64,000 nt of DNA. Source: a virus. The stretch spans positions 5,467 to 69,466 of the IMG/VR virus record IMGVR_UViG_3300024308_000021; one strand, 5' to 3'. Of this stretch, positions 4,835 to 32,060 are shown one piece after another (within the stretch, counting starts at the first letter, position 1; each line of letters starts with the position of its first letter). The notes beneath the pieces are model-generated. The model searched no databases. It worked only from the letters and a program-made list of their open reading frames with translations, and had not been told where the DNA came from. The translations under genes and the position numbers were made by a program.

Positions 4835-5821
4835 ATGTTGCTGAAAACACCATACGACGCACCGGTCATGAAAGCCTATGACCTCAAAAAAATCCAATCC
4901 CAAGTAGCTGAAGCCATCGTAGCTGGTGAGTATGCTAGTCGTGAAAAACTCGACGAGTCTGCTGCTATCTACAGAACTCCTAATCCGATGTGGGATTTTG
5001 AGCTGGCTAATGACGTCGTGGCTATCGTGAAAAATACTGACTGGAAAACCACAGTCGATCCTTTCCCTATTCCTTTTAAGATGCGCACTGCTGCTGGTAA
5101 AGAGCTGTACGTCCTGGATGCTCGGATGTACACAGCTCCGGCCAACCACTACCGTCAGTACGGCATTATGCACAACCCGTCTGAGATTGGTGTGTATTCC
5201 GACATTATCTCTTGGATGCGTTGCTGGGATGCCCGTGAGGGTGGTGACATTCGTCGTGTGCATGACTACGTGACTGGTACTTTCGCTAACTGGATTGCCA
5301 GTGCTGTTTCCAGGATCACTGGTGTGAACGGTGGTGAGGATTACGATATCATTCGTTTCCTGGCAGCTTACTGGTTCCAGGCTCAGTTCTCTGAAGTACC
5401 TTACGAGGTTACTGTAGAAGAGCGTCTGCGGATGCGTCGCGTAATGACCAACTGCTGGCCTCGCCCGGATTCCGTGGTAGATCTGCAAACCAAGGACTTC
5501 GGTTACATCGGAAACCTGGAAGACTTCCTGGAAGCGGTTAAGAAACAGCTTCCTAACAATCGTCGGGTACACATGCTCAACCGGGCTTACTTCACACAGC
5601 AGATCGCCAACAGCTGGCGCGGCTTCCATGCTGGTGTGATGAGCAACGTGGCTATGGAGTATCCTCCTTTCTTTATCGCCATGTACTACTACTCGCTGAC
5701 CAACGGTTGGGCTAAAGATGTTGGTTTGGGTAAAGTAGCACAGAACCTGCGCGATACTCAAAAGCGTGCAGACTTCCTGGCCTCCTATCGGAGAACTATC
5801 AATGTCTGGAAACAGCCGTAA
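4835..5821 (+). CDS. virion structural protein (phiKZ gp28-like)
   Basis: 328 aa, GGAAGG RBS, divergent from the sheath as in the phiKZ-like core block. Confidence 0.6.
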   Translation: MLLKTPYDAPVMKAYDLKKIQSQVAEAIVAGEYASREKLDESAAIYRTPNPMWDFELANDVVAIVKNTDWKTTVDPFPIPFKMRTAAGKELYVLDARMYTAPANHYRQYGIMHNPSEIGVYSDIISWMRCWDAREGGDIRRVHDYVTGTFANWIASAVSRITGVNGGEDYDIIRFLAAYWFQAQFSEVPYEVTVEERLRMRRVMTNCWPRPDSVVDLQTKDFGYIGNLEDFLEAVKKQLPNNRRVHMLNRAYFTQQIANSWRGFHAGVMSNVAMEYPPFFIAMYYYSLTNGWAKDVGLGKVAQNLRDTQKRADFLASYRRTINVWKQP

Positions 5822-19637: not shown

Positions 19638-20516
19638 ATGCGCTTTGAAATCCACGTATCGGAAAACATCCACCATCTTCGTTTGACAGAAGACACACTC
19701 GTATTCAATATAGCGCCACTTTACTTGAGCGTAACTTCTATCGAAGATGAGGATCGTATTGATGTGGATCTTCATCACACCAATTCGGCGGTTTGGATGG
19801 AGGTCCTGAACAAATACATAAAAGAAGATGAACCCAAGCCGGAAGTGCATGATAAACCTCTGTTGATTTTGTCTGGACCCGATACACTGGACAACTATCT
19901 AACCGACTGGTTGAAAATAGCCAACAGCGTAGTTATCAACCAACCTATCAATCTAAGAGACATTCCACACCACCCACATCCGCGTGGGAACTCCACCAGA
20001 AGGAAAGAAGTTTATTTTATCGATAATGATAAAGTAGAACTCGGTCTCGGAGAACGGAACTTACGTTACCTGAACAAACAGCACAGCAATGCTACAGTAA
20101 TCCGTAAGTTGCTGGAGCACATGCCTTACTTGTACGTCTACACACCACCTAAACCAGTCTATGTGGAATATGAGTTTGTTTTGGTAAAAGCTGGGGAAGA
20201 GTTGTATGATCGTCGCGGTCTGATGGCTGTAGAACACAACGTTCTGATCGGTATCGATGTCTGGGTCTATTCTAAACAAGTAGAACAGTTAACAAATAAG
20301 GGAGTGATTGCGAACCGTTTTCCAAACATCTCTATTACGAAGATAACCCGTAAGACCGACGTACCCTGTGTGGGATATGCTGATGTGGACATCTGTGGTG
20401 TGGCTGCGTCGGATCTTTACGAATTTTATTGTATTAACCAAATGGAACTGAAGTACGAGGAGATCCCGAAAGAGCAACAGGGTGATCCTTTGTACTTTTC
20501 ACCTGATTTTAAATAG
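19638..20516 (+). CDS. hypothetical protein
   Basis: 292 aa, AATAAGGA RBS. Confidence 0.8.
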   Translation: MRFEIHVSENIHHLRLTEDTLVFNIAPLYLSVTSIEDEDRIDVDLHHTNSAVWMEVLNKYIKEDEPKPEVHDKPLLILSGPDTLDNYLTDWLKIANSVVINQPINLRDIPHHPHPRGNSTRRKEVYFIDNDKVELGLGERNLRYLNKQHSNATVIRKLLEHMPYLYVYTPPKPVYVEYEFVLVKAGEELYDRRGLMAVEHNVLIGIDVWVYSKQVEQLTNKGVIANRFPNISITKITRKTDVPCVGYADVDICGVAASDLYEFYCINQMELKYEEIPKEQQGDPLYFSPDFK

Positions 20517-20523
20517 ACGACAC

Positions 20524-20552
20524 GGAGGAGGGGTAGTCCCTCCTCCTTTTAT
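20524..20552 (+). terminator. intrinsic terminator
   Basis: GGAGGAGGG-gtagt-CCCTCCTCC TTTTAT. Confidence 0.75.
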
Positions 20553-20570
20553 ACGCCGAGGTAACTCTGT

Positions 20571-21091
20571 ATGAATTATTCTCACTTTACACCTGAAGAA
20601 CTTGATCTTAGCATACCGCTGGAGGAGCCATGTTGGTCAGAACAGGATTTGGAGCTCAGTCGCTTGCACACAGGGAGTTACTTGCCCTCTCGTTTAGTCC
20701 GGAACGTTTCCCGACACCAATCTCGATCACAGACTCCCCTCTTAGAAGAATTACACTAACCAACCACAACGTTCGCTTCTATTCAGACCTGAAACTAATG
20801 AAGGCATCCAACGCATACGTGTTGACTGGTCTAAGAAGCGGATACACGGAAGAGATCCTCGCAATCGGGTACAGTAACCCAGAACCCCCTAGAGGGTCAG
20901 CGCCTGTACCCACTGAGAACGACTACTTTAATTTCGTAGACACCACCACTGAGTTTATACTGGCGATCGAGTTTCCTTTTCGGTCTTCAGTAGCTGGACT
21001 TCTGCTGATGGACTGCATCCTAGGAGCCGATGAAAACTACGTGGATGTAGTACGCTACGAAGAACTTAGCTTTTGGGCAAACGGCGAATAG
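20571..21091 (+). CDS. hypothetical protein, possibly one gene split by a -1 shift near 20670 (ORFs 20571..20759 and 20630..21091)
   Basis: ORF1 has a GAGGT RBS; ORF2 overlaps it in the -1 frame and ends at the terminator. Confidence 0.5.
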
Positions 21092-21130
21092 GAGGAGGGC
21101 TCGAGCCCTCCTCTGTTTCTTTTTTCTTTT
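21092..21130. terminator. bidirectional terminator
   Basis: GAGGAGGGC-tcga-GCCCTCCTC plus T-rich run; convergent genes. Confidence 0.8.
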
Positions 21131-21965
21131 AGTTCAAACCACCCACACGACTGCGTAGGTCACGAGCATGACGTTTACGGTCGTTCATGAACATCAGCTT
21201 ACCACCCTTCTCTTTGAGGAGTTCTCGGTAGGTTTGGTTAGCGTCAGCATACTCGGAGATTACCTCACGGATCACCCCGAGTTCTTGACCAGCCATTAAC
21301 TGACCCTGGTCAATTCCCACACGCAGTTTAGTGTAGATAAAAGCTTTGCAAGCCAGTACCGACAGTTCAGCAATAAACCCGTAGTAAGCCGGCTGGATGT
21401 TTTCCATCTCACCTGAGTTAGCTACCAAACAGATCAACCACGAATGAGGTGTCTTAGCCACTACGTCACGCACTAGGATAGTGTTAGGAGCTATCAGTGT
21501 AACGTTGTCCGTAGAAACCAGAGGAATAGGAGAGTGTGAAGCCATTACACCTATTACCTGGTTAGACACAGCACTACGACCGGGCTCAGACCCTAAGAAC
21601 CCAGAGTACTGTGACATCCCGTAGTTGTAACCAAAGCCACCATTCTGACCGTAGGAGACGTTCAGAGGCTGAATGATCTCACGACCACCCGTCAACTCCA
21701 TTGGGATCGTATACACCTCAGCGTAGGATTCTACTAGCTTAGGCTCCAGGCCGCTGAGAGGCACTCGGATCTCAGCACCACCGATCAGATTCAGATCTCG
21801 ACGTACACGACGTTGGATGATCTGCTCACGCAACATCGTTTCAATACTGACGTGTTGTTGTAACCAAGGCGAGTTACGCACGTCATGATCAACGAAAGCT
21901 AGTTCGAGGATCTCCCGTGGGATCTCGTACATGATCTCGTCTATAGCCTTACCTGTGGGTCCCAT
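21129..21965 (-). CDS. conserved virion structural protein of phiKZ-like phages
   Basis: 278 aa, GGGAGG RBS; KAIDEIMYEIPREIL N-terminus typical of a Chimalliviridae core virion protein (recalled). Confidence 0.55.
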   Translation of the reverse strand: MGPTGKAIDEIMYEIPREILELAFVDHDVRNSPWLQQHVSIETMLREQIIQRRVRRDLNLIGGAEIRVPLSGLEPKLVESYAEVYTIPMELTGGREIIQPLNVSYGQNGGFGYNYGMSQYSGFLGSEPGRSAVSNQVIGVMASHSPIPLVSTDNVTLIAPNTILVRDVVAKTPHSWLICLVANSGEMENIQPAYYGFIAELSVLACKAFIYTKLRVGIDQGQLMAGQELGVIREVISEYADANQTYRELLKEKGGKLMFMNDRKRHARDLRSRVGGLN

Positions 21966-21983
21966 CGCAACCCCTCCCCATCG

Positions 21984-22033
21984 TATGTGTAAATAAAAAC
22001 CATCCAGGAGATGGTATAGAACTCAGTCATACC
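21984..22033. promoter_or_regulatory. divergent TATG late-type promoters
   Basis: TATG at 21984 (+) and TATG on - at 22031-22028 in the divergent gap. Confidence 0.4.
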
Positions 22034-22053
22034 ATCTCTTAAGGATATCGAAA

Positions 22054-22302
22054 ATGGAAAAGACCCCTGTCGACCAACACACTGTAGTTGGCTATGCAAC
22101 TACCATCGCCCAGAACGTCAACGAAATGGCGAAAGCGCTGGTTCCTGAAGTTTCTGGACTGCTCTGGCAAGCCGGCAATCTCCCGCTGGAAAAGCAAGTA
22201 GCTCTGAACGAAGCTCTCCTGGGTATCCAGTCCCTGACTCTGGAGCTTCAACAAAGAGTTAAAGATCTGCTGGAATCCGACCTGATCCAAAACAAACAGT
22301 AA
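22054..22302 (+). CDS. small helical/coiled-coil protein
   Basis: 82 aa, TAAGGA RBS; first gene of the phuZ operon. Confidence 0.75.
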   Translation: MEKTPVDQHTVVGYATTIAQNVNEMAKALVPEVSGLLWQAGNLPLEKQVALNEALLGIQSLTLELQQRVKDLLESDLIQNKQ

Positions 22303-22320
22303 GATAAAGGAACCATTGTC

Positions 22321-22764
22321 GTGGAAACTACAGCACTCGATATTTTGCGGACATTGATTCTCAACAACCAATCTACAGCTAACGAAGACCAGGCATTGCT
22401 GACCTCACTGTACACCAAGTACGGTCAGCTCGATTCTTCTGATCAGATCTGCCTACATCAGCAGATTGTTAATCTGATGGAAACTCGCCGCACCTACGCT
22501 ATGCAGCTTAACGACCTCCAGGAATCTTCCAAGAATCTTTTGGAACCGACCCAGGAAAAGGTAGATGCCGGCATGCCTTCAGGTTTGTTTGTTTCTCTGC
22601 GCCAGATCGCTCTCCCGGAGACCCAGAAAGCCGTTTACAACGACCTCGTAGACCAACTCGAGCTGCTCCTGAAAACCAACGGTAAGATCTACACCTGGGA
22701 AGACGTTGCGGCACAGCGTCTCCAAGATCCTCAACCGGTTAAAGTTGATCTTAACACTCTGTAA
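22321..22764 (+). CDS. helical hypothetical protein upstream of phuZ
   Basis: GTG start after AAAGGA; 147 aa. Confidence 0.75.
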   Translation: METTALDILRTLILNNQSTANEDQALLTSLYTKYGQLDSSDQICLHQQIVNLMETRRTYAMQLNDLQESSKNLLEPTQEKVDAGMPSGLFVSLRQIALPETQKAVYNDLVDQLELLLKTNGKIYTWEDVAAQRLQDPQPVKVDLNTL

Positions 22765-22773
22765 GGACTTCAG

Positions 22774-23733
22774 ATGAAGAACACTGTTCGTATCTACGCC
22801 TGTGGCGGTGGTGGTATCGCCCAAGCTCAGAATCTTCCTGCGTTGGAAAACGCGGTAGGACTGGCCACTCCGAGTATCGTATATTGTGATACCTCAGAAG
22901 CCAACCTCCTGGCTCACGACACTACTCAGACCTTCCTGATCAAAGGAGCTAAAGGTAGTGGTGGTTTGCGTTCTCAGAACGCTGAACCCATCGTGGAGTC
23001 CGTAGGTGACCTGTTAAGGGAACATCCGCCATGCGACTTCAACATCGTTCTGTTCACTGGCGGCGGCGGTTCTGGTAGTGTGTTCGGACCGATCGTGCAA
23101 GGTGAGTTACTGCAACGTGGTGTAGCCACGGTTGGGTTGATGATCGGTTCTACCGAGTCAGCTCGTGTCACCGAGAACGTTCTGAACACTTTCCGGTCTC
23201 TGGAATCTGTACGTGGTGAGCTCCCTCTGGTGATCATGTACTTCCAGAACCAGGACAACGCCTCCCAGGCTGTAGTAGACCAGCAAGTAATGGCAGCGCT
23301 CCCTCTGCTGTTGATGCTGGCTTCCGGTGAAAACTACAGTATGGATCCGAACGATCTACTGCACTTCTTGCGGTACGACCGTGTGACGGATGTTCCCGCC
23401 CAACTCACGCTGTTGGACATCTTTACTGATGCGGAAGCGGTTGCTCGCGCAATCACTCATCCGATTACCAACGCCAGCGTGTACTCCGATCGCGATGCTA
23501 CTGTATTGCAACTCGGTTCCCAGTACGACGCATTCGGCTTCCGTCCGAAGATCGATGCGATGGATGCTCCTGAATCAGTGCACTTCGTTACGCACACTCA
23601 AGAGCTTCGTGAAATCCTGGGTGGACTCCAGTCCGCTCGTGAAAAGTTCCAGGAGACTGCCAAGTCGATCCGCCCTGCTATGGATCTGCTGTCCGGCGTC
23701 TCCCAGAAAGGCCCTGGTAAACTAGTCCTGTAA
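22774..23733 (+). CDS. phuZ: phage tubulin PhuZ
   Basis: IYACGGGG, GSGGLRSQN, tubulin signature GGGGSGSVFGP, T7-loop DPND; 319 aa. Confidence 0.95.
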   Translation: MKNTVRIYACGGGGIAQAQNLPALENAVGLATPSIVYCDTSEANLLAHDTTQTFLIKGAKGSGGLRSQNAEPIVESVGDLLREHPPCDFNIVLFTGGGGSGSVFGPIVQGELLQRGVATVGLMIGSTESARVTENVLNTFRSLESVRGELPLVIMYFQNQDNASQAVVDQQVMAALPLLLMLASGENYSMDPNDLLHFLRYDRVTDVPAQLTLLDIFTDAEAVARAITHPITNASVYSDRDATVLQLGSQYDAFGFRPKIDAMDAPESVHFVTHTQELREILGGLQSAREKFQETAKSIRPAMDLLSGVSQKGPGKLVL

Positions 23734-23750
23734 AAGGAGAAGGAGTGTCG

Positions 23751-23966
23751 ATGTTTGTATGTGCGTCTTGTAGCTGCCCAGAGGAGCTCGAACTCATCTC
23801 GGTTGCAGTGACTCCACGAACCGATACTCCGCTGCTCTGTTCCGTCTGCATTTCCGTGGGGGAAGATGTAGGGGGATTACGATCAGTGTCTAGTGGGCGA
23901 CTCGGGGTTACCCCGAAGCAGTCGCCAGTACCAAAGCCAGACAATAGGAGGTCTGATTGCTGCTAA
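23751..23966 (+). CDS. possible small Zn-ribbon-like protein (71 aa)
   Basis: AAGGAG 5 nt before ATG; CASCSC...CSVC; overlaps structured RNA. Confidence 0.35.
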   Translation: MFVCASCSCPEELELISVAVTPRTDTPLLCSVCISVGEDVGGLRSVSSGRLGVTPKQSPVPKPDNRRSDCC

Positions 23967-24145
23967 CCGGATTCGGTGTGGTATTAGGATACCCACTGGC
24001 TCTTGCTGAACCGCAAGAAGTTTACGTCCAGGTGCAACCAGACTACGTAGCAACCTCAGTCGGGATAGTGAACGACTCTCACTCTCCTTACTTCTCCGGA
24101 CGACCCACCGTCATGGGTAGAGCACAGGCTCGCAGGTGCCTGTAA
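23957..24145 (+). CDS. possible small peptide with hydrophobic N-terminus (62 aa)
   Basis: AGGAGG 5 nt before TTG, but the RBS is in a hairpin and the ORF is heavily base-paired. Confidence 0.25.
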   Translation: MLLTGFGVVLGYPLALAEPQEVYVQVQPDYVATSVGIVNDSHSPYFSGRPTVMGRAQARRCL

Positions 24146-24400
24146 GCTCACCCACCGGAGGAGGGGTTGCATACATAGCCTGATACGCACACTTGGCATA
24201 CAGCCCTATGGTATGGAGTCACAGACTCTTCTCTAACAACTAGGTTAAGTTCTCAGCCGAGAACGCAAAGCGCAGCAGTGATGCTCACGGGTAATAAAGC
24301 TAATCTGTCTAAAAAGGTACAAGGATTGCTCTGGTGTCCGTTGCGACGGTTCGACCTGATCTCGAGTCCGACGAGCAGTCAGCAAATAATGCCTAAATCA

Positions 24401-24438
24401 GGGAGGGCGTTCAGCCCTCCCTTATGCCGCTTTTTATT
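24401..24438 (+). terminator. terminator of the phuZ operon
   Basis: GGGAGGGC-gttca-GCCCTCCC TTATGCCGC TTTTT. Confidence 0.8.
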
Positions 24439-24483
24439 TACGTCACCAAACCATCTATGAACGTCATAGAGCCATTTTAAAAC

Positions 24484-24503
24484 AAACCTATATTACCCTA
24501 CTG
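24484..24503 (+). promoter_or_regulatory. putative early promoter
   Basis: AAACCTA-TATTAC-N5-TG. Confidence 0.65.
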
Positions 24504-24549
24504 GACTACCTTAGGAATGCGTTTAAAAAGGTTTTAGGAGCCTCTGCGA

Positions 24550-24903
24550 ATGAAAAGAGTATTGGTTATCGCATGTGGATTTTTTAAGCTAAAGCATACT
24601 CCCAGTTTAGGGATGTCGTTCGACGACAACCGTGTGTTAAAAGTACAAGTACTCACCCAAGCTGAATTCGCCACAAACGTAGTAGCTTGTGTGGCTAAAA
24701 TACTAAACGACGAAGGATACGACGTTAGAGGCTCTTATGGGTTTCTGTCTCGTGAAGCTCTACAACAGTCCTTACGGATTTGTTCGGAACACAGAGACCG
24801 TGTGCTGAGGCTTGTACAAGAGCTCAACTGGTATCGTTCCAAGGATATACAGCTACACAGTAACGACGGGATCAACATTTATATAACCTACGAGGAAGTG
24901 TAA
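24550..24903 (+). CDS. hypothetical protein
   Basis: 117 aa, AGGAG RBS. Confidence 0.75.
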   Translation: MKRVLVIACGFFKLKHTPSLGMSFDDNRVLKVQVLTQAEFATNVVACVAKILNDEGYDVRGSYGFLSREALQQSLRICSEHRDRVLRLVQELNWYRSKDIQLHSNDGINIYITYEEV

Positions 24904-26048
24904 TGTCCAACAAAGCTTTTGCCATCAACACAGCCAACGCTATAACGTACCTAATCGGGGAGATGCGACAGGTATGTGAATCATCCTCGTGTTTGGTAGA
25001 CCGAGGGTTTCTGGCACGCAGTCTTACTCAAGCTGTGTGTGATTACATTCAAGAATGCGAAGCGTGGCGCAGTACCTACAACCCAGGACGAGCTCGCAAC
25101 TGCACTAGCATCCGTGGGTTGACACACATCCGCAAACAGTTCGACAGCCACATCCGCGCGCTACAGACACGCGGCCCCCTTCCTTTCTCTCGTGTGCAGT
25201 ACGAGCGAGCAGTGCTTGCTTTTAATAAAGTAAGAGAATGGATTGTGGAAGCTGTGGCCGAATATATCACCGTAGAGGAATGGCAGGTCTGCTACACCCG
25301 AGCCCACACCACCACTGTTACAGTGGAGTTGTTGGGAGACTATCGGATCCTGGATTGGGAGTACCGTCGTAAGTGTGGTGAGTTGGTGCATGACGGCGAA
25401 CTTACCACAGCCCACATCGATCATCTGGTTCGAGCTAAAGGTTTAAAAGTAGCGCGTAGCGTAGACTCTGTAGTGTTACCTACCGACGACACCGACTTAG
25501 TAAACGGAGCTGGTGACGTGGTAGACTCCACGGCATTCACAGCTGTCCAGCCGTTAGGCGGTATAGTTCAAGAAGGTCGCGATGACGACTACGATGAATA
25601 CGCACGGAACAACAACTCAGATCTATTACTGACCCGAGTTGAATCTAACCCGTACAACGCCACCAAGTCAGTTCTGTTCGATGACCTACAGTCCGCTAGA
25701 GTAGTGGGTTACCATGCTCGTACTCCATTAGGCAGTGCTCGACGTATCATGACGACAGCTTTTGGTAACTACCCGGAACTGGTACGTCGTATTCAGAGCA
25801 GTTCGGCTGTAAGAGAGCGCCTGCGTACTATGGGTTGGAATGGAGATACTGCTAAGTTCACTGAAGAGATGGCAGCCGCAGTGCTTTACGGAATGTCTCC
25901 AGAAGTTTACAGAAACCTTCGTCCGGTTAATAAACCAATAGGTTTGCAGAATGTACAAGACGATATATCCACTAACAAGACCGCTACAGAAGCTCCACGG
26001 CAAGATACTGGCTTTCGCTTTACCGCAACACCGAGGAAGAGTTACTAA
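24903..26048 (+). CDS. hypothetical protein (conserved-block N-terminus, less ordered C-terminus)
   Basis: 381 aa, TAATG coupling, GAGG RBS. Confidence 0.85.
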   Translation: MSNKAFAINTANAITYLIGEMRQVCESSSCLVDRGFLARSLTQAVCDYIQECEAWRSTYNPGRARNCTSIRGLTHIRKQFDSHIRALQTRGPLPFSRVQYERAVLAFNKVREWIVEAVAEYITVEEWQVCYTRAHTTTVTVELLGDYRILDWEYRRKCGELVHDGELTTAHIDHLVRAKGLKVARSVDSVVLPTDDTDLVNGAGDVVDSTAFTAVQPLGGIVQEGRDDDYDEYARNNNSDLLLTRVESNPYNATKSVLFDDLQSARVVGYHARTPLGSARRIMTTAFGNYPELVRRIQSSSAVRERLRTMGWNGDTAKFTEEMAAAVLYGMSPEVYRNLRPVNKPIGLQNVQDDISTNKTATEAPRQDTGFRFTATPRKSY

Positions 26049-26358
26049 CGATTTCTTGTTGATGTTGGCTGAGTGTGTCTGTAATCGAGTGTTGTATGGG
26101 GCGTCGGAGTTGGATTACGAGATACCAACTCCTGGAGAGGTATTGGATGAGTTCTCAGGAACAAACGGTTCTGGTGAGTTACTCTTACAGGAACTGAAGT
26201 CAGACATCCACTACCAGATGTGCATGCTCAATCCCAACTACAAGGAAAACATAAATGACTTGGAACTCGTTTGGTGCGATGACCCAACGCTCACATTCGA
26301 AGCCTGGGTCACTTACTCAGAGTCCGTACCTGGAGCACCTTCGAAAAGCTGGCGGTGA
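25951..26358 (+). CDS. hypothetical protein (start uncertain, 25951 or 26062)
   Basis: Fills the gap between flanking genes in the operon. Confidence 0.6.
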   Translation: MYKTIYPLTRPLQKLHGKILAFALPQHRGRVTNDFLLMLAECVCNRVLYGASELDYEIPTPGEVLDEFSGTNGSGELLLQELKSDIHYQMCMLNPNYKENINDLELVWCDDPTLTFEAWVTYSESVPGAPSKSWR

Positions 26359-26362
26359 GTTG

Positions 26363-26845
26363 ATGAACAGAATAGTTATCATTCCAGATACGCAACTACA
26401 ACGTACTCTGGTGAAAGGGTTACGGGAAATACAAGTAGACGAACTAGGAATCTCTGTAAAGCAAGCTATGGAGTTTGTGTACGACGCGCAGCTCCGCAGT
26501 TTACAAAACACAGGGGATCCTGGCTCAGCTTTTCAAGAAGCAGTAGCTGATGTGGTGTGGGGGTTTTTCGCTGGGTATGAGGAGAGTTACGACGCAGATA
26601 GCGGAATGATCCACCTGGCGATAAACCACGCCCGTGGTAACGGCGGGTTGAGTATTATCGAACTCGACCATCGAGCTAATCAACTGATCTACCTGCTGCA
26701 AGAACAGACCGACCTCTACTGCAAACACTATCGTGATTACATTGCTCGCTGGATACACGAGTATCCTGAGTACGTGATCACAGCTGAGTTCATTCGCTTC
26801 TTACACGGAGGCTACGCGGTATATGTCGGAGAACCCAAGTGGTGA
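26363..26845 (+). CDS. hypothetical protein (160 aa)
   Basis: ATG 26363 after GGTGAG, right after the previous stop. Confidence 0.75.
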   Translation: MNRIVIIPDTQLQRTLVKGLREIQVDELGISVKQAMEFVYDAQLRSLQNTGDPGSAFQEAVADVVWGFFAGYEESYDADSGMIHLAINHARGNGGLSIIELDHRANQLIYLLQEQTDLYCKHYRDYIARWIHEYPEYVITAEFIRFLHGGYAVYVGEPKW

Positions 26846-31937: not shown

Positions 31938-32060
31938 CTCACCCGCTGGTGTTCACGCACCAGCTATCGTTTTGGGGGGTTCCAAAAAAACACACACCTA
32001 AATTACCCAGGTGAGCAAACGAAAGTATGCTCTTGTTTTACGTAAAACAAAGGAATAAGT
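31938..32060 (+). promoter_or_regulatory. structured 5' leader of chimallin
   Basis: CTCACC/GGTGAG closes two hairpins; a further hairpin abuts the RBS. Confidence 0.5.

Follow-up and report, generated by a model that had tools for sequence, protein, structure and literature searches.

A small reading frame overlapped by a conserved multibranch RNA fold at the putative distal end of the phuZ transcription unit of an uncultured chimallivirus

What is encoded in an apparent gap of about 680 nt directly downstream of the phage tubulin gene phuZ in a jumbo phage? We addressed this question in the IMG/VR virus record IMGVR_UViG_3300024308_000021, of which a stretch of 64,000 nt (positions 5,467 to 69,466 of the record, hereafter the window, to whose numbering coordinates refer unless a contig is named) was analyzed. 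The window is part of a 125.6-kb record with an estimated completeness of about 45%, and all features described below lie on its + strand. A preliminary description, made from the sequence alone, had read the gap (23740-24421, 682 nt) as a single large, ornate non-coding RNA. We detected instead two small open reading frames (ORFs), here called ORF-A and ORF-B, and a multibranch RNA domain of 146 nt, which is the only exceptionally stable part of the stretch. We favor, with a probability of roughly 0.55, the reading that the phuZ transcription unit runs to its distal end in this stretch, where two small cistrons are accompanied by an RNA fold acting in cis. The unit is lineage-restricted and newly recognized, it combines coding sequence with structured RNA, and it is not an RNA on the scale of OLE or GOLLD.

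How much of the stretch folds more stably than its composition predicts was assessed against dinucleotide shuffles. The whole 682 nt gave z = -5.06 on the + strand and z = -3.81 on the - strand, and the excess stability lies almost entirely in the multibranch domain (24038-24183, z = -5.32, likewise against dinucleotide shuffles), compared with -0.46 ± 1.16 and a minimum of -2.76 for coding controls from the same genome. The ORF-A part (23751-23945, z = -1.65), the 5' part of ORF-B (23946-24037, z = -0.60) and the 3' tail (24184-24400, z = -0.17) are all inside the shuffled range. The helices listed in the preliminary description are all found in the sequence, at or near the coordinates given there; since only one 146-nt part exceeds the shuffles, most of the packing with helices that it reported is expected from composition alone, and the helices outside the multibranch domain are mostly no more stable than chance.

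The conservation of the fold was examined on ten further contigs, which were compared with the window and represent four lineages: the window type (the window and L088), L085/L086, L003, and the L002 type (L002, L087, L089-L092 and L094). The conserved multibranch domain (24043-24178) lies exactly where a nested multibranch domain had been proposed. Its long closing helix, formed by 24043-55 with 24165-78, carries two arms, of which the first is a hairpin at 24057-93 with a conserved loop A-C/A-GACUC, and the second is closed by 24094-99 with 24155-61 and contains the hairpins 24103-18 and 24120-49. On a model-based alignment of ten sequences, 96% of the cells of the fold are paired, versus 31-41% when the partners are slid, and changes on both sides occur in 10 of the 36 pairs, versus 0-3 pairs in the slid controls; none of 500 shuffles reached the observed values. 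A structure predicted from the window alone and then tested on L002 kept the double changes in a ratio of 13:4, with 1-8 kept in the slid controls. The pairings GCAACC/GGTTGC, CTTCTCCGG/CCGGAGGAG and GAGC-ACAGGC/GCCTGT-GCTC, all named in the preliminary description, are maintained by compensatory changes in the relatives, and the G-U pairs of the fold fit the + strand only.

The fold covers the distal half of ORF-B including the stop codon (24143-45, within the hairpin 24120-49) and extends about 35 nt further, with the 3' strands of three of its helices downstream of the stop. The helix 24064-71/24079-86 illustrates what this overlap entails for the protein. Its two strands hold the codons GTG/CAC in the window, CCA/TGG in the L002 type and ACG/CGT in L003, each pair reverse-complementary, so that the encoded amino acids change from V/H to P/W to T/R with all base pairs retained. 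The compensatory changes lie exactly in the half of ORF-B that is unconstrained as a protein. This substitution pattern argues that selection has kept a four-helix fold through compensatory changes, at the cost of the amino acid sequence of ORF-B. In half of the reading frame, the RNA fold would be strong enough to determine which amino acids are encoded, which makes the locus a clear natural example of selection for RNA structure overriding selection for protein.

ORF-B itself is an unannotated frame of 62 codons with a TTG start (23957-24145), and the only frame open in every lineage. Its putative Shine-Dalgarno sequence AGGAGG (23946-23951) ends 5 nt before the start codon. In L085, the sequence following the phuZ stop codon opens with AGGAGG, and this boundary pointed to a unit starting at position 23946 of the window. 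In nine of nine sequences, the start codon, TTG or GTG, is preceded at a distance of 4-5 nt by AGGAGG or AGGAAG, despite a 5-nt indel in the start region. The frame is likewise open in all nine, with a length of 62-64 codons and a shared stop column, and is the sole stop-free one of the six in all lineages. It always begins within about 15 nt of the stop codon of the upstream ORF, which is ORF-A or, where ORF-A is missing, phuZ.

The substitutions divide ORF-B into two halves. For codons 1-30, the ratio of nonsynonymous to synonymous substitutions (dN/dS, Nei-Gojobori) between lineages is 0.16-0.33, versus 0.6-2.1 in the other two forward frames, and within the segment YVxVQPDY five third-position changes, all of them synonymous, separate the window from the L002 type. 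For codons 31-61 the ratio is 0.8-1.5, indicating that this half is without protein-level constraint. As a protein, only the first 30 residues or so would be conserved, comprising a hydrophobic, signal-like segment and a short motif. The N-terminus consists of a hydrophobic stretch of about 16 residues ending in A-L-A, A-I-A or L-I-A, followed by the motif EPQExYVxVQPDY, and looks like a signal peptide according to the established rules for such peptides. ORF-B had no match in Pfam (up to E <= 1) or PHROG, and a look-up in the Atlas was uninformative. Gene callers missed it in all public contigs except the assembly contig P0026, in which it was called once, so that the apparent gap conceals a micro-gene with a TTG or GTG start. 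We regard the translation of ORF-B as quite probable. The N-terminal coding part further contains a small hairpin (23976-23996, GUG.GGUAU/AUACC.CAC) in which one pair changes from U-A to C-G in four sequences, with a U-G intermediate in L092.

The preliminary description had taken the gap as non-coding and had named a codon pattern in the conservation as an observation that would refute its RNA. Such a pattern is seen, as the first 215 nt or so belong to a known phage protein family (ORF-A, 23751-23966) and the next 189 nt are the conserved ORF-B, with codon-type substitutions in its first half. The search for covariation in the phuZ-downstream regions of relatives, which it had also proposed, supported the multibranch domain; in the tail, only one of 41 predicted pairs was compensatory.

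Downstream of the fold, a conserved non-coding tail (24184-24400) would form the 3' untranslated region (3' UTR) of the phuZ operon. The tail contains short predicted hairpins and a variable A-rich linker, and among all 100-nt bins across 9 kb, the most conserved ones lie here, with 88% and 80% identity to L003, compared with 62-81% in phuZ and 45-65% in most other genes. No small ORF is conserved in the tail, as 1-nt indels within the A-rich linker disrupt the candidate frames. The predicted pairs in 24207-24386 are mostly invariant (36 of 41), leaving too little variation to test the structure. Variation in the tail is concentrated in loops (p = 1e-8) when the alignment-derived structure is used, which makes this test circular, and the enrichment is not significant for eight of ten single-sequence folds. 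The tail is thus a strongly conserved non-coding sequence with a structure that is only predicted.

The tail ends at a terminator-like GC hairpin of 9 bp (24400-24422), followed by an 8-nt spacer and a T-run (24431-24439), an arrangement kept in all relatives. The hairpin is of the type GGAGGG...CCCTCC, as in the called terminators at 20524 and 21091, and the terminators of the phage have a GGAGGAGGG...CCCTCCTCC hairpin in common. The consensus terminator scan made no call at 24400 because the T-run begins 8 nt after the stem; this hairpin is what the preliminary description had named as the terminator of its RNA. The end of the unit is also marked by a promoter-like motif, AACCTATATTAC (24485-24496), which precedes the next operon (gene 24550-24903) and is the sole exact copy in the window. 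This motif is enriched in intergenic regions, and its core, ACCTATAT, is intergenic in five of six genome copies. It is located about 55-65 nt upstream of the start codon of the 117-aa gene, a copy with two mismatches (31995-32006) is placed likewise before the start codon of chimallin, and the motif is probably a promoter of the phage. No promoter-like motif was found between phuZ and the GC hairpin, which renders the proposed co-transcription with phuZ plausible.

Based on these observations, the most likely mechanism is that a cis-acting fold on the phuZ operon mRNA controls the translation of ORF-B or the stability of the mRNA. ORF-B would be translationally coupled to the upstream cistron, and a ribosome translating it would have to melt the fold, which, perhaps together with a pairing between the start region and the tail, would restrain translation; alternatively, the fold would protect the 3' end of the phuZ operon. 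Since the ribosome would have to open the fold and the fold would limit translation, the multibranch domain would act as a translation or stability control element. The tail would probably supply sequence-specific sites for protein binding, RNase binding or base-pairing, and may be freed as a 3'-UTR-derived RNA with its end at the hairpin and T-run. The pairing between the start region and the tail is speculation based on prediction: for the window and L085, GAUUGCU of the start region is predicted to pair with AGCAGUC of the tail, for the L002 type the pairing is predicted in a different register, and it would compete with an internal helix. The unit formed by ORF-B and the RNA offers a concrete target for studying the control of tubulin-operon expression.

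Several observations weigh against a cis-acting fold on a translated ORF-B. The alignment contains only about four independent lineages and the tested structure was derived from the same alignment, and with so few lineages the covariation statistics are inflated by shared ancestry. In L090:2016-2640, an NCBI metagenome contig identical in its DNA to L097, 137 nt are deleted between two AAGCCCA repeats, with the loss of most of ORF-B and the whole fold and the tail left in place; the fold may thus be dispensable, or the deletion may be an assembly artefact. The codon usage of ORF-B is neutral (-6 to +5 bits, compared with +20 ± 11 for real genes and -30 ± 11 for wrong frames), and an ORF-B profile searched against 1.84 billion proteins found its own clade only, as a single 64-aa protein, and no homologue outside it. 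The predicted pairing between the start region and the tail reaches p ~0.05 against shuffles in two lineages and is not significant in L003, and shows neither a cognate-specific signal nor co-evolution.

The same observations can be arranged in other ways, of which the foremost places the function in the RNA itself. An RNA of about 480 nt (23946-24430), either stand-alone or dual-function, would act in trans as a scaffold, decoy or riboregulator, with ORF-B as an incidental or second function, as in RNAIII or SgrS. The covariation and exceptional stability of the fold would be expected of such an RNA, as would an ORF-B that lacks protein-level constraint over codons 31-61, a tail conserved above every neighboring gene, and a unit that stays intact where ORF-A is lost; strongly folding, ORF-free gaps beside phuZ in other chimallivirus loci point in the same direction. 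We nevertheless consider this reading rather unlikely, given that codons 1-30 carry a clear coding signature in one frame, that no internal promoter motif was found, that the tail is not unusually structured, and that the 80 loci and 50 genomes of related phages searched hold no homologue. Nor does the 125-kb record contain a significant antisense target, the only match being a 17-nt repeat on the sense strand. A specific version, in which 23946-24430 is a true dual-function RNA that yields a small exported or membrane peptide plus a stable processed RNA, acting through the fold and the near-invariant tail, for instance by binding a phage or host protein, would place the unit within a sequence-diverse chimallivirus habit of keeping folded RNA beside phuZ; we regard it as unlikely. 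The conservation of 24184-24550 could, on the other hand, be a signal at the DNA level (binding sites for regulators, an alternative promoter, or an element serving replication or packaging), with only the 146-nt fold acting as RNA. The tail is indeed no more stable than shuffles and its predicted pairs hardly vary, the high conservation does not stop at the T-run and includes the promoter region of the following gene, and other intergenic regulatory stretches, such as 21900-22100, are highly conserved too. However, the tail is located upstream of the terminator-like hairpin, within the transcribed unit, and carries no copy of the intergenic promoter motif, and its variation falls mainly in the loops of the consensus fold, subject to the circularity and the mostly non-significant single-sequence folds described above; a purely DNA-level signal appears improbable.

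Two further readings have less in their favor. In a module resembling type I toxins of the hok mRNA kind, the compact fold and 5'-3' fold-back pairing would block the translation of ORF-B, which on this reading is a small membrane-active peptide. The small size and hydrophobic N-terminal segment of ORF-B, the highly structured mRNA, the start-tail pairing GAUUGCU-AGCAGUC predicted in the window, L085 and the L002 type, and, weakly, the nearest Atlas clusters of ORF-B, which are membrane-protein fragments, are consistent with such a module. We judge it quite improbable: ORF-B matches no Hok/Gef or other toxin family in Pfam (E <= 1), neither a promoter-like site on the antisense strand in 20500-26500 nor an antisense RNA was found, the hydrophobic stretch of just 16 residues or so contains Gly and Pro and is more signal-peptide-like, and the fold-back pairing lacks both significance in L003 and co-evolution. 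A degenerate ribozyme or intron remnant, with a group I-like core or a disguised hammerhead, was considered because CAGACUAC...GUAGUCUG resembles the R/S (P7) elements of group I introns. No intron or ribozyme model of Rfam matches at E <= 10, and this highly improbable reading is close to refuted. As for a group I intron, the model RF00028 does not match at E <= 10, and the P7-like CAGACUAC/GUAGUCUG helix stacks on GCAACC/GGUUGC as one long stem, with no P3-P8 pseudoknot. There is also no interrupted gene, PhuZ being full length to its conserved C-terminal GLVL; the terminator-like hairpin comes after the element, and L085 retains the element without ORF-A. A hammerhead was rejected in view of the absence of a model match at E <= 10 and of a conserved CUGANGA...GAAA core in alignment A6, in which the CUGAU stretches lack G8 and are not conserved. 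The preliminary description had itself stated that the hallmarks of tRNA, transfer-messenger RNA (tmRNA), RNase P and introns are missing, in which it was right. ARAGORN detected no tRNA or tmRNA gene in the entire window, and Rfam 15, the search of which it had also recommended, revealed no known RNA family; up to E = 10, the only hit was on the terminator-like hairpin, to PhotoRC-I, with 13.5 bits against a gathering score of 45. As for the role in the phage nucleus, spindle or virion that it had envisaged, nothing in our analysis ties the RNA to any of these.

The reading as a distal phuZ unit with a cis-acting fold invites comparison with known systems. Among these, the closest functional analogues appear to be dual-function RNAs such as RNAIII (hld, Staphylococcus) and SgrS (sgrT, E. 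coli) and compact small-ORF mRNAs such as hok, and the unit is a member of neither family. As in RNAIII and SgrS, a short ORF lies towards the 5' end of a segment of about 0.5 kb that further comprises conserved RNA structure, a non-coding 3' part of high conservation, and a terminator-like hairpin. Unlike in those RNAs, with which there is no sequence or Rfam relation, the fold overlaps ORF-B and its stop codon, no base-pairing with a target was found in the 125-kb record, and the segment is probably the tail of the phuZ operon of a nucleus-forming jumbo phage and not a gene of its own. The hok-family mRNAs share the small ORF with a hydrophobic N-terminus, the tightly folded mRNA and the predicted pairing between the start and the 3' region; they differ from the unit described here in that the latter shows no Hok/Gef homology and no antisense RNA, its fold-back pairing is statistically weak and ORF-B resembles a signal-peptide protein. 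With the large ornate RNAs of phages and bacteria, namely GOLLD, ROOL, HEARO, OLE and raiA, the unit shares a multibranch fold with covariation, and it is phage-borne. However, none of the Rfam models of these RNAs matches, and the established fold of the present unit measures only about 146 nt, overlaps an ORF that appears to be translated and occurs in one narrow clade.

The element consisting of ORF-B, fold and tail occurs in a single narrow clade of chimalliviruses, all uncultured, and this narrow distribution restricts its reach. When the region was compared by blastn with 50,697 phage records, no match was obtained, and the same holds for three exact-motif scans of IMG/VR viral contigs and one of GTDB genome contigs. 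A scan of JGI metagenome contigs gave 19 matches, of which 17 were due to chance and two were contigs from the set already compared. Searches with covariance models built on the tail (R1) and on the multibranch domain (R2) returned no match beside phuZ in 80 IMG/VR chimallivirus loci (for R2 also in one GenBank phage locus), nor did the R1 search across 50 whole jumbo-phage records; the best hits scored 13.9 and 9 bits. The element is not described in the literature that was searched. ORF-free gaps of 475-790 nt that fold strongly were also observed beside phuZ in other IMG/VR chimallivirus loci, namely L064:4746-5312 (z = -7.6), L029:2682-3299 (z = -7.2), L079:4753-5227 (z = -4.5) and L026:4476-5262 (z = -3.9), none of which matches Rfam, R1 or R2. 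Given these gaps, folded RNA beside phuZ may be a recurrent trait that is wider than the clade studied here.

The classification of the phage follows from its proteins: the record encodes PhuZ (22774-23733; PHROG 4733 tubulin PhuZ, E = 1e-79; Pfam TubZ_C_2), a DNA polymerase and the nuclear-shell protein chimallin, pointing to a nucleus-forming jumbo phage (chimallivirus). Its PhuZ has at most 37.5% identity to the PhuZ of GenBank phages; in a word-based protein search, the closest relatives had 92% and 84% identity and the next ones all about 40% or less, and the PhuZ cluster at 90% has 28 members. The relatives have in common the gene order phuZ, a stretch of about 600 nt in which gene callers report at most one small ORF, and the same 117-aa gene. 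Except in L085/L086, ORF-A is located between phuZ and this stretch, and the order is otherwise as in the window.

ORF-A (23751-23966) encodes a small Cys-rich protein (CxxC...CxxC) of 71 aa, or 73 aa from a GTG at 23745, and was assigned to PHROG 11861 via its relatives. Most relatives carry a version of 78 aa, of which the L002 copy matches phrog_11861 with E = 2.6e-8; the window ORF-A has no direct match to this family and is 44% identical to the L002 copy, with all four Cys residues kept. In the distant chimallivirus L004, the PhuZ of which is only 41% identical, a homologue with 46% identity directly follows phuZ (L004:4500-4736), and another copy was recognized by eye at about 4450-4690 of L012. 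Given the phrog_11861 match and the homologues following phuZ in L004 and L012, ORF-A is a real gene travelling with phuZ. The small, zinc-ribbon-like protein belongs to a phage family accompanying phuZ; it is syntenic even in chimalliviruses with a PhuZ identity of only 37-41%, and could serve the phage tubulin as a conserved partner or regulator. In the window ORF-A is decaying, its C-terminus being frameshifted through a 34-nt deletion, and in L085/L086 it is lost, so that the ribosome-binding site of ORF-B comes straight after the phuZ stop codon. The phuZ operon of nucleus-forming phages now has two conserved small partners, of which ORF-A is syntenic with phuZ across distant lineages.

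A few further observations were made around the locus. The 17-nt exact repeat GGTACAAGGATTGCTCT occurs in the tail (24316-24332) and once more in the genome (C1:69511-69527), within a + strand gene 45 kb away; as this second copy is sense-oriented and not conserved in relatives, the repeat is probably due to chance. Upstream of the phuZ operon, the divergent intergenic region (21900-22100) likewise ranks among the most conserved parts, with 81-97% identity to relatives, and probably holds promoters and regulatory sites. Lastly, L088:3001-4680 is a mosaic: an L002-type PhuZ (98% identity) is combined with an ORF-A, ORF-B and fold that belong to the window type and with a tail that is once more L002-like, which points to recombination inside this short stretch.

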